DNA from: a virus
Lineage: Duplodnaviria > Heunggongvirae > Uroviricota > Caudoviricetes
Virus record (IMG/VR): IMGVR_UViG_2541047950_000002
Coordinates: 1-51,620 of that record
Strand: one strand, 5' to 3'
Length of the DNA: 51,620 nucleotides
Position 1 is the stretch's first letter. The number at the start of each line of letters is the position of its first letter. The notes beneath the pieces were generated by a model. The model saw nothing but the letters and a program-made list of their open reading frames with translations, ran no database searches and was not told the DNA's origin. The position numbers and the translations under genes are program-made. Shown here one piece after another: positions 1-953 of this stretch.

Positions 1-537
1 ATGATGCTTACCCTAGACGAGATAGGTCAATCTGTACGTAACAATATCCAGTTGATTATTGATCATGTCGGCTTACCTCTTGCTGTTGGTCCGCTCAGTG
101 ATGATGATTACAAGATTCTGTGTGGTGGCTATGGTGAGCTTGAATGGGACTATGCGTTAAGCACCTATGGCAACTCCAGAGAAAAGTATGAGTTCTGCAT
201 AAAACTTGTTCAGCAAGGTCGGGTTCAGGGAATACCATCAGGAGCAGCAATTTGTGTTTATGGGGTTGAAGAAAACATCTTTCGTATCCATATGATCGAA
301 AGGTTTTCTAGAGAAGATGAATCTCACCCATTGAAAGGGCGCATGGTTTTACTCACTCTTATGAGTGCTTTTATATTTTGTAAAGCTGTTGAATGTAAAG
401 TTGTCCACATTGTAGAGCCAGTACCAGAACTGGTGCAGTATTACGAGTCTTTTGGTTTCCGCATGGAACAGTGCGGTTATGTGATGTCTGCAGTCATTGA
501 TGAGCTGCAGGATATCTTTCTTAAATTTGCTCAGTAG
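1..537 (+). CDS. hypothetical protein, 178 aa; att-proximal AT-rich cargo (loosely acetyltransferase-like, unverified)
   Basis: Open frame from ATG at position 1 (may be truncated by the window edge); low GC versus neighbouring phage genes; C-terminal YYESFGF motif is only loosely GNAT-like. Confidence 0.4.
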   Translation: MMLTLDEIGQSVRNNIQLIIDHVGLPLAVGPLSDDDYKILCGGYGELEWDYALSTYGNSREKYEFCIKLVQQGRVQGIPSGAAICVYGVEENIFRIHMIERFSREDESHPLKGRMVLLTLMSAFIFCKAVECKVVHIVEPVPELVQYYESFGFRMEQCGYVMSAVIDELQDIFLKFAQ

Positions 538-733
538 GTATAGACGAGAAGGGTCTACAAATTGTAGGATACCCGTCCAGATTACCTTAAAGGTACATCT
601 ATGGCAGTCGTTTTGTGCTTAAACTACTAAGAAACGATGTCACCAATCGACATGATCGATTGGCATAAGTTAGCGAAACAAGCTAGCTTTAAAGAGAGGG
701 TTAGAGACGCCTTTACTGTCTCGGGAGTTTTCT

Positions 734-907
734 ATGAAAGATCAAAAAGCAACCAAGCCACAGGTTAAGTTCGACACAATGAAAGCATTCGCAGGTATGG
801 GTGCTGCTGTTGAAGTTCTGATGAAGGCTGCTCCTAATGCGTTCACTCACGCTACTGTCTCTGGTAAAGAGCAGCAGGGTAAGCTTCGTCGTCGCAAAGC
901 AGCATGA
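734..907 (+). CDS. small hypothetical protein, 57 aa, lysine/alanine-rich
   Basis: ATG at 734 preceded by GGGAG about 6 nt upstream; stop TGA 905-907; not in the ORF track because it is under 60 aa; followed directly by a terminator. Confidence 0.4.
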   Translation: MKDQKATKPQVKFDTMKAFAGMGAAVEVLMKAAPNAFTHATVSGKEQQGKLRRRKAA

Positions 908-926
908 TCATAGCTGGTGCTTTTTG

Positions 927-953
927 AAAACCCGCCTTTAGGCGGGTTTTTTC
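927..953. terminator. bidirectional rho-independent terminator between the rightward cargo genes and the leftward early operon
   Basis: Hairpin AAAACCCGCC-TTTA-GGCGGGTTTT followed by a T-run on the + strand; shorter T-run on the - strand. Confidence 0.6.

Follow-up and report, generated by a model that had tools for sequence, protein, structure and literature searches.

We analysed a 51,620-nt stretch of DNA (hereafter the window), which comprises positions 1 to 51,620 of the IMG/VR virus record IMGVR_UViG_2541047950_000002, and found that a two-gene cassette at its left end (1-951) is a self-contained, horizontally mobile unit that behaves as a phage moron and occurs in at least six kinds of position. 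The cassette encodes an acetyltransferase-like protein of the GNAT (Gcn5-related N-acetyltransferase) fold, hereafter called GNAT, and a small basic protein, S57, and the two genes are separated by a promoter-like element (P2) and a structured leader of five predicted hairpins (HP1 to HP5) and are followed by a terminator (Table 1). The GNAT gene was never found without S57, and S57 was found without GNAT. We tentatively read the cassette as a toxin-first module of toxin-antitoxin (TA) type that serves the lysogen or the prophage, by abortive-infection defence, by addiction (prophage stabilisation), or by both, a serious possibility that falls short of being probable. A preliminary description of the same stretch had recognised both open reading frames (ORFs) and their low GC content, and our analysis agreed: GC was 0.40-0.45 across 1-900 and 0.47-0.52 in the early genes of the next 2 kb. 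The GNAT start codon conserved among homologues is the second ATG, at position 4, which gives a protein of 177 aa.

The pairing of the two genes was strict. An S57 homologue lay downstream of GNAT in all 122 GNAT loci, which span Escherichia, Salmonella, Pseudescherichia, Franconibacter, Enterobacter, Edwardsiella, two Photorhabdus clades, Xenorhabdus, Brenneria, Shewanella and IMG/VR contigs; the spacer measured 93-196 nt in the reliably measured loci among them, an automated value of 412 nt (L041) being due to a mis-set GNAT end. The reverse search, with an S57 profile, recovered homologues with 30-40% identity to S57 that also had a GNAT homologue directly upstream, with hidden Markov model (HMM) E-values of 1e-64 to 1e-75; these distant loci were a second E. 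coli variant with a 78-nt spacer, Pantoea, and Morganella. Taken together, over 130 loci from some 15 genera showed the pairing, with S57 always 78-196 nt downstream of GNAT.

The cassette was phage- or prophage-borne in every locus examined. It was located between attL and xis of prophages integrated in dusA (E. coli and Salmonella), next to int in a dusA prophage (Morganella), at a prophage edge (Pseudescherichia and Shewanella), just upstream of lysis genes (Edwardsiella and Enterobacter), inside the baseplate/tail module of a myovirus (Photorhabdus), and between tail genes on the opposite strand (Pantoea). A GC-rich stem-loop was present 15-40 nt past the S57 stop codon in 15 of 15 cassettes inspected, regardless of genus or context, and was followed by a T-run in 14 of them, the exception being Photorhabdus L006. 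Upstream, a -10-like TAYAAT about 37 nt before the GNAT start was conserved across contexts; a generic promoter scan made no call there. Morons, as defined for HK97 and HK022, are autonomous insertions in lambdoid phages that consist of a promoter, a gene, and a terminator. Like them, the cassette is flanked by promoter-like elements and a strong terminator of its own, has a lower GC content than its neighbours, is inserted between genes that are otherwise contiguous in related phages, and recurs in unrelated phage positions; unlike the usual moron, it has two genes and two promoter-like elements. The term describes an architecture and is silent on function.

The GNAT guess of the preliminary description was borne out by structure and not by sequence profiles. 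An AlphaFold2 model built on an alignment of 28 homologues had a predicted local distance difference test score (pLDDT) of 89.2 and a predicted template modelling score (pTM) of 0.86, and a Foldseek search of the PDB with this model returned GNAT acetyltransferases exclusively (3eo4, SpeG, AtaT, Gcn5, TacT3, and KacT; E-values of about 1e-6 and template modelling [TM] scores of 0.55-0.58), TacT2 being a further structural match among the GNAT toxins. The mixed alpha/beta fold with a central sheet that is typical of GNATs (beta2-beta3-beta4, alpha3, beta5, alpha4, beta6) is present in the model, and a search of viral folds in BFVD returned generic viral GNATs and nothing more specific. Neither cassette protein had a Pfam or NCBIfam match at E <= 1 or a PADLOC (PADLOC-DB v2) defence-model match at the same threshold, and among PHROGs both fell in families of unknown function alone. 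A sequence profile search of the PDB gave no GNAT at E <= 10, and its only matches were spurious ones to coiled-coil and armadillo repeat proteins. The GNAT family proved to be small: when 1.84 billion cluster representatives were searched exhaustively with an HMM, 94 proteins were found at E <= 1e-3. Ten members from the more distant part of this set, scanned against Pfam, had no GNAT match, the only match being a weak, sub-threshold one to Clavanin, so that no bridge to any named GNAT family was found. Judging from the model, the 178-aa protein has a GNAT fold, although it is remote from all solved and curated GNATs. We rejected the possibility that it is a metabolic enzyme fragment because the family is conserved and full-length at 171-187 aa (with one 204-aa form).

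Residues H97 and E100 on beta4 and the segment Y148-x-x-x-G152-F153 on alpha4 were invariant in the 28 homologues. Assigned by motif and not by superposition, Y148 occupies the position of the GNAT catalytic tyrosine (motif B, Y-x-x-x-G-F) and E100 that of the carboxylate base on beta4, and their positions in the model agree (beta4, residues 93-101; alpha4, residues 142-149); the equivalent tyrosine of TacT is Y140 (PMC4942678). The loop before alpha3 is longer than usual and carries the invariant residues H109-P110-L111-x-G113-(R/K)-M115; the pyrophosphate loop reads HPLKGRM versus the canonical Q/R-x-x-G-x-G/A. On these motifs, catalytic competence is plausible, but the pyrophosphate loop is non-canonical. 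The GNAT of the window is acidic, with an isoelectric point (pI) of 4.8, and all 16 homologues computed had a pI of 4.4-4.9.

S57 proved to be a small basic protein, as the preliminary description had supposed, with a pI of 10.5 and a range of 9.6-10.8 in 19 of 19 cassettes computed; the opposite charges of GNAT and S57 were thus kept across the computed homologues and cassettes. S57 homologues occur in many Enterobacterales and in Shewanella and are 54-61 aa long in GNAT-linked loci. The ratio of nonsynonymous to synonymous substitution rates (dN/dS) was 0.07-0.25 across genera, which indicates purifying selection and therefore a real coding gene; given this ratio and the presence of a Shine-Dalgarno sequence, we rejected the possibility that the small ORF is untranslated. 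The AlphaFold2 model of S57 was of low confidence (pLDDT 61) and contained a single helix at residues 15-32, and the basic tails flanking this helix are probably disordered. No DNA-binding domain was recognisable by Pfam or as a fold in the model. A motif, F/Y..hG.A...L..AAP, is kept across all clades and is followed by E..G(K/R) and by a basic C-terminus whose last residues are AA, AAA, or AVA. The C-terminus of S57, ...RRRKAA, resembles the C-terminal degrons ...YALAA of ssrA and ...NRRKKAI of MuA that are recognised by ClpX (PMC12723719), a likeness that we regard as a lead. A ribosomally synthesised and post-translationally modified peptide precursor with its modifying enzyme was also considered and rejected, because conservation extends over the whole peptide, without a variable core, and neither a protease nor an exporter is present.

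A census of 5426 complete E. coli genomes revealed that the dependence between the two genes is one-sided. GNAT was present in 358 genomes, and a match covering at least 80% of the GNAT, S57, and xis segment was found in the same number; S57 was present in 562, which leaves about 204 genomes with S57 but no GNAT. The carriers included O157:H7, O145:H28, and O111:H8 strains, and the pair was also widespread in Salmonella and Enterobacter prophages. In the S57-only genomes, similarity to the window started at the S57 ribosome-binding site (Table 1), and GNAT and the leader were replaced by a gene for a Panacea/SocA-domain protein (PF13274) and a gene for a protein of 128 or 139 aa. Four alleles of the slot between attL and xis were read from sister dusA prophages (L123, L134, L135, L136, L002, and L137-L141): GNAT with S57; a 190-aa Panacea protein with a 139-aa protein and S57; a 157-aa Panacea protein with a 182-aa protein; and a 179-aa protein with a YafO-family toxin. 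The last two lacked S57. Since Panacea- and YafO-type pairs occupy the same slot, the attL-xis slot appears to be a hotspot for TA-type pairs or defence cargo; and since GNAT was never alone and S57 was tolerated alone, the pattern is that expected of a toxin and its antidote. The S57 alleles in the Panacea context carried changes at otherwise invariant positions, such as AAP to ASP and the terminal A to V, which hints, in a small sample, at relaxed constraint on the protein. At two of the loci (L140 and L141), an extra CoiA-nuclease-like gene was located between S57 and xis.

These results suggest the following scheme for a toxin-first module. Transcription would begin in a promoter region just left of the window and pass through the GNAT gene, P2, the structured leader, and the S57 gene to the terminator. 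The acidic GNAT would be the toxic effector and would use acyl-CoA to acylate a basic target of the cell or of a phage. S57 would neutralise GNAT by binding it and keeping it inactive, probably with the conserved helix and the basic C-terminal tail lodged in the acidic substrate groove, and may itself be acetylated. It would be made in excess, from P2 as well as by read-through from upstream, with its synthesis tuned by the hairpin-rich leader, and may be unstable and turn over quickly by way of its degron-like C-terminus. GNAT would then be released once S57 synthesis stops, for example during a phage-induced shut-off, and a defence phenotype of the lysogen could follow. If the cassette is a TA or defence module, its effector would be a GNAT that acts on something other than tRNA, its antidote would be a micro-protein of a new kind, and the attL-xis slot in dusA prophages would stand out as a hotspot for modules of this sort.

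Several points weigh against a toxin and antidote. The asymmetry of the pairing would also be seen if a harmless enzyme simply required S57 as its cofactor or substrate. The Pfam, NCBIfam, and PADLOC searches returned nothing for either protein, and a literature search found no published account of the cassette or its proteins. Because S57 has no recognisable DNA-binding domain and the genes are 78-196 nt apart, classical type II autoregulation is inapplicable. The non-canonical pyrophosphate loop leaves the use of acyl-CoA unproven. Finally, tRNA binding by TacT depends on essential positively charged surface patches (PMC4942678), and the acidity of GNAT, compared by whole-protein pI as a proxy for surface electrostatics, therefore makes the acetylation of aminoacyl-tRNA unlikely and leaves no target that can be named. 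A toxic GNAT would probably act on a basic molecule rather than on tRNA.

The alternative that the cassette is a non-toxic enzyme-partner pair for lysogenic conversion, in which S57 is an acetylation substrate, an adaptor, or an activator and neither growth arrest nor antidote logic is involved, appears rather unlikely but deserves consideration. S57 stays intact without GNAT in about 200 E. coli genomes, and GNAT is never alone, although the gene for a harmless enzyme should occur by itself at least occasionally. Moreover, the allelic cassettes of the same slot are TA modules. If the two proteins are nevertheless a harmless enzyme and its substrate, the cassette is still a clean example of a two-gene moron that moves between unrelated phage positions.

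It is unlikely that the cassette is a counter-defence module in which GNAT acetylates and inactivates a host defence protein with S57 as a helper. A precedent exists in AcrVA5, a GNAT anti-CRISPR that acts by acetylation, and the phage- or prophage-borne state of the cassette at every locus examined, the confirmed GNAT fold, and an acidic surface that suits a basic protein substrate are all compatible with such a role. However, the cassette occupies early, late, tail-module, and att-proximal sites, each time with its own promoter-like elements and terminator; its expression therefore appears to be uncoupled from the infection programme, as is typical of genes expressed in the lysogen. Host dusA transcription may also enter the cassette through the displaced dusA fragment described below, and the need for an obligate small partner is left unexplained.

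The region between the two genes provided further evidence on how S57 might be expressed. The motif TAGAC(G/A)-N16-18-TAnnAT, with -10 variants TA(G/C)(G/C/A)AT, lies directly past the GNAT stop codon, and its position is kept even where the surrounding sequence differs (in Escherichia, Salmonella, Pseudescherichia, Enterobacter, Franconibacter, Photorhabdus clade 2, Xenorhabdus, Brenneria, Pantoea, and a metagenome-assembled genome). A consensus promoter scan did not call P2, which is too weak for it; we infer that P2 is an internal sigma-70-type promoter for S57, with a predicted start near 577. A GC-rich palindrome, CGGGATCCCG, which is a BamHI site, was found just past the GNAT stop codon inside the P2 spacer in many genera (L003, L020, L025, L026, and L109-L121) and was absent from E. 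coli and Salmonella.

The predicted minimum free energy of the E. coli leader was -47.9 kcal/mol (z = -3.66), and none of 200 shuffled sequences was as stable; the antisense strand gave z = -1.85. RNAfold predicted the same hairpin architecture in eight other enteric loci, with the sequence of HP2 varying among genera. We tested the conservation of pairing on the three 3' hairpins (HP3, HP4, and HP5) in an alignment of 22 distinct leaders. All three kept their pairing: 88.8% of the cells were paired, compared with 22-41% when the partners were slid, and six pairs showed compensatory double changes. Shared ancestry is only partly corrected for by these controls, and the margin of the sense over the antisense strand in the pair counts was modest (89% versus 85%). 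A covariance model of HP3-HP5 (R1) matched once per enteric-type cassette, on the plus strand only, and matched nowhere else in 402 kb or in the Panacea-type alleles. An Rfam scan of 1-1400 returned sub-threshold, terminator-like matches at 856-959 alone and nothing at 538-733. The conserved leader is thus a candidate new cis-regulatory RNA absent from Rfam.

HP3 is the palindrome that the preliminary description had taken for an operator. Its perfect 8-bp arms were confirmed; its position had been given as about 645-665 and is 2 nt to the left of this. By chance, about 0.13 perfect repeats with 8-bp arms are expected in 950 nt, so that the palindrome taken by itself could be fortuitous; its significance comes from its conservation in other genera. 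A DNA operator for a dimeric repressor, whether S57 or a host or phage protein, would account for perfect arms whose sequence is conserved in several genera and for the A:T to G:C change in Salmonella, which affects both arms symmetrically, as in a dimer-binding site, and is equally compensatory in a helix. In the type-2 leaders (L110 and L116-L121), however, three changes in the 5' arm of HP3 each convert a Watson-Crick pair into G·U; these are mismatches in DNA, and therefore the helix survives as RNA while the dyad symmetry is lost. Over the leader alignment, 51 cells were G·U and 29 were A·C, and 79% were Watson-Crick pairs versus 89% paired as RNA. In addition, the promoter-like motif is about 70 nt upstream of the palindrome, four other hairpins surround it, of which HP4 and HP5 keep their pairing, and S57 has no DNA-binding fold. 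An operator is accordingly improbable, and an RNA hairpin of the S57 leader is clearly the better reading of these alignments. The 3' arm of HP3 and the bases that follow it (CGAUUGGYA) form the most conserved sequence of the leader. A GATC (Dam) site is present in the E. coli palindrome at 654-657; a Dam-methylation switch was rejected because the site, which is probably incidental, is absent from Salmonella and other genera. A type III RNA antitoxin was rejected because the leader has no tandem repeats.

In most other genera (leaders of L003, L020, L025, L026, L028, L115, L110, and L116-L121), HP3 and the following GAUUGGUAA coincide with a tiny upstream ORF (uORF) of 9-10 codons, M-x-P-I-x-x-x-(D/N)-W-stop, which in the type-2 leaders reads (TTG/GTG)-I-I/V-L-I-G-I-P-(D/N)-W-stop. 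Its length varies (9, 19, or 43 codons), and in Salmonella it runs in frame into S57 to give an 89-aa form. Pfam, NCBIfam, and PADLOC scans of the 43-aa version found in the window (637..768) returned nothing, and no clear Shine-Dalgarno sequence was seen for the ORF starting at 637. The RNA structure probably gives rise to this ORF incidentally, although it may encode a leader peptide. A more elaborate form of the toxin-first module, in which an orphan acidic GNAT with a basic protein target is held by a degron-tagged, disordered micro-protein and the leader RNA gates this prophage immunity or addiction module as an infection sensor, seems to us improbable. The gating would possibly operate through the 9-codon '...D-W-stop' leader peptide or through S57 autoregulation at the conserved CGAUUGGUA hairpin, and the leader would link the perturbation of translation or transcription by a phage to the release of the enzyme.

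Comparison with known systems showed that the cassette is most like a GNAT-type TA system and is not a member of the known GNAT/DUF1778 family (TacAT, AtaRT, KacAT, and ItaRT). As in that family, a two-gene mobile module encodes a GNAT-fold protein of roughly 175 aa and an obligately linked small partner; TacT3, TacT2, AtaT, and KacT are among the structural matches, and Y148 is at the position of TacT Y140 (PMC4942678). In contrast, the partner of the cassette is encoded downstream and has no ribbon-helix-helix (RHH) or DUF1778 domain and no Pfam match, attL and the dusA fragment rather than an RHH antitoxin gene lie upstream of GNAT, and the 78-196 nt that separate the genes contain an internal promoter-like motif and a structured leader. 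The cassette GNAT is acidic (pI 4.4-4.9), whereas TacT depends on positive patches for tRNA binding, and the cassette GNAT has no sequence-level similarity to any solved GNAT toxin. The likeness to TA or small defence modules that the preliminary description had suggested therefore stands as regards the obligate, asymmetric pairing and the TA pairs in the slot, but does not extend to membership of the known GNAT/DUF1778 family, and the gene order is reversed. Toxin-first TA systems such as mqsRA and higBA have extra antitoxin promoters, and hicAB belongs to the same group; the cassette similarly has its larger putative effector first and its small partner second, with a promoter-like element of its own. 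The antitoxins of higBA, mqsRA, and hicAB have helix-turn-helix DNA-binding domains and the genes are closely spaced, whereas S57 is a disordered protein of 57 aa preceded by a leader of about 160 nt. The Panacea (SocA/PanA) TA pairs of the sister prophages share the slot, orientation, size class, and two-gene organisation of the cassette, and one version keeps S57; GNAT has no homology to the Panacea protein or its partner, and the leader RNA is absent there.

TopAI-YjhQ of E. coli consists of a small toxin, a GNAT antitoxin that counteracts it, and the regulatory leader peptide ToiL. The cassette resembles it in pairing a GNAT with a small protein and in having, upstream of the small gene, a leader that may contain a short uORF; unlike YjhQ-type GNATs, which are ordinary Pfam acetyltransferases, the cassette GNAT has no Pfam match, and the gene order is opposite, S57 tolerates the absence of GNAT, and the length of the uORF is not conserved. 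A reversed, type VII-like TA system with S57 as a small basic nucleic-acid-binding toxin and GNAT as its acetylating antitoxin would give the usual antitoxin-first order, which the alternative alleles of the slot also have, and would suit the complementary charges of the two proteins, but it is very unlikely, because S57 is intact without GNAT in about 204 complete E. coli genomes, which would be intolerable for a GNAT-dependent toxin, and because the second promoter-like element would lift the supposed toxin above its antidote.

The window is an mEp460-type E. coli prophage integrated in dusA. Positions 1-1300 were 98.7-98.9% identical to the lambdoid phage mEp460 and 100% identical to chromosomes such as that of E. 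coli 2014C-3097. Integration in dusA was evident because a displaced 5' fragment of the gene (dusA') lies left of the window and int, a restored dusA, and pspG lie at its right end (Table 1); prophages of this dusA-integrating kind are described in PMC4482086. The att-proximal position noted in the preliminary description was corroborated by leftward extension in the 100% identical genome NZ_CP027449.1, in which the end of dusA' (L042, 3753-3857) is 146 bp upstream of position 1; the two-gene unit is thus located directly inside attL, at that distance. The dusA' fragment is on the same strand as both ORFs and points into the cassette, and a terminator scan of NZ_CP027449.1 found no terminator between them. 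Because of this orientation, the host dusA promoter may transcribe the cassette in lysogens by way of dusA'. The gene order in the free phage is tail fibre, dinI, int, [attP], 178-aa gene, 57-aa gene, xis, and 3'-5' exonuclease. The cassette had been thought to be transcribed away from the early operon; instead, it is on the plus strand and converges with xis and the exonuclease gene, on the minus strand, at the shared terminator. The description of this terminator as bidirectional is only partly supported: it is strong and canonical on the plus strand, on which it was called by the scan; on the minus strand the stem is followed by UUUUC and then A's, and the scan made no call.

Table 1. Features of the cassette, its convergent neighbours, and the right end of the window
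Feature	Position	Strand	Remarks
GNAT-fold protein gene	1..537	+	178 aa from first ATG; phrog_4350
P2 promoter-like element	541..570	+	-35 TAGACG 541-546; 18-nt spacer; -10 TAGGAT 565-570
Structured leader	577..733	+	Five consecutive predicted hairpins upstream of the S57 gene
HP1	577-600	+	Predicted folding
HP2	602-642	+	Predicted folding
43-aa ORF	637..768	+	Starts in leader; overlaps S57 start out of frame
HP3 (palindrome)	643..663	+	Predicted folding; CCAATCGA-CATGA-TCGATTGG; arms 643-650 / 656-663, 5-nt spacer
HP4	667-689	+	Predicted folding
HP5	704-722	+	Predicted folding; abuts the Shine-Dalgarno sequence
Recombination breakpoint	721..724	.	Similarity to the window starts here in ~200 E. 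coli genomes and in phages Lys8385Vzw and SKA5
Shine-Dalgarno GGGAG of S57 gene	723-727	+	
S57 gene	734..907	+	57 aa; phrog_2741
Rho-independent terminator	926..951	+	GAAAACCCGCC-TTTA-GGCGGGTTTTT; 11-bp stem, T-run; shared head-to-head with convergent xis/exo operon
xis, PrtN-family excisionase-like (PF11112)	end at 955	-	RefSeq 93 aa; longest ORF 102 aa
Rv2179c-like 3'-5' exoribonuclease-fold protein (PF16473)	within 955-1848, with xis	-	Convergent neighbour of the cassette
dinI	48711-48959	-	Prophage right end
Tyrosine integrase	49021-50118	-	Prophage right end
dusA, complete	50207-51244	+	5' end phage-supplied; attR core near 50294-50310
pspG	beyond dusA, right end of window (48711-51620 region)		Prophage right end

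The cassette is widespread, yet both of its proteins are annotated as hypothetical and belong to no curated family. Four E. coli contigs (L124-L127) carry the distant cassette in which S57 is 30% identical and the 78-nt spacer contains an extended -10 element, TGgTAGAAT. Its locus differs from that in the dusA prophages, with ProQ/PerC-like, phage-like genes on one side and type III secretion genes (SpaO, FliP, and secretin) on the other.

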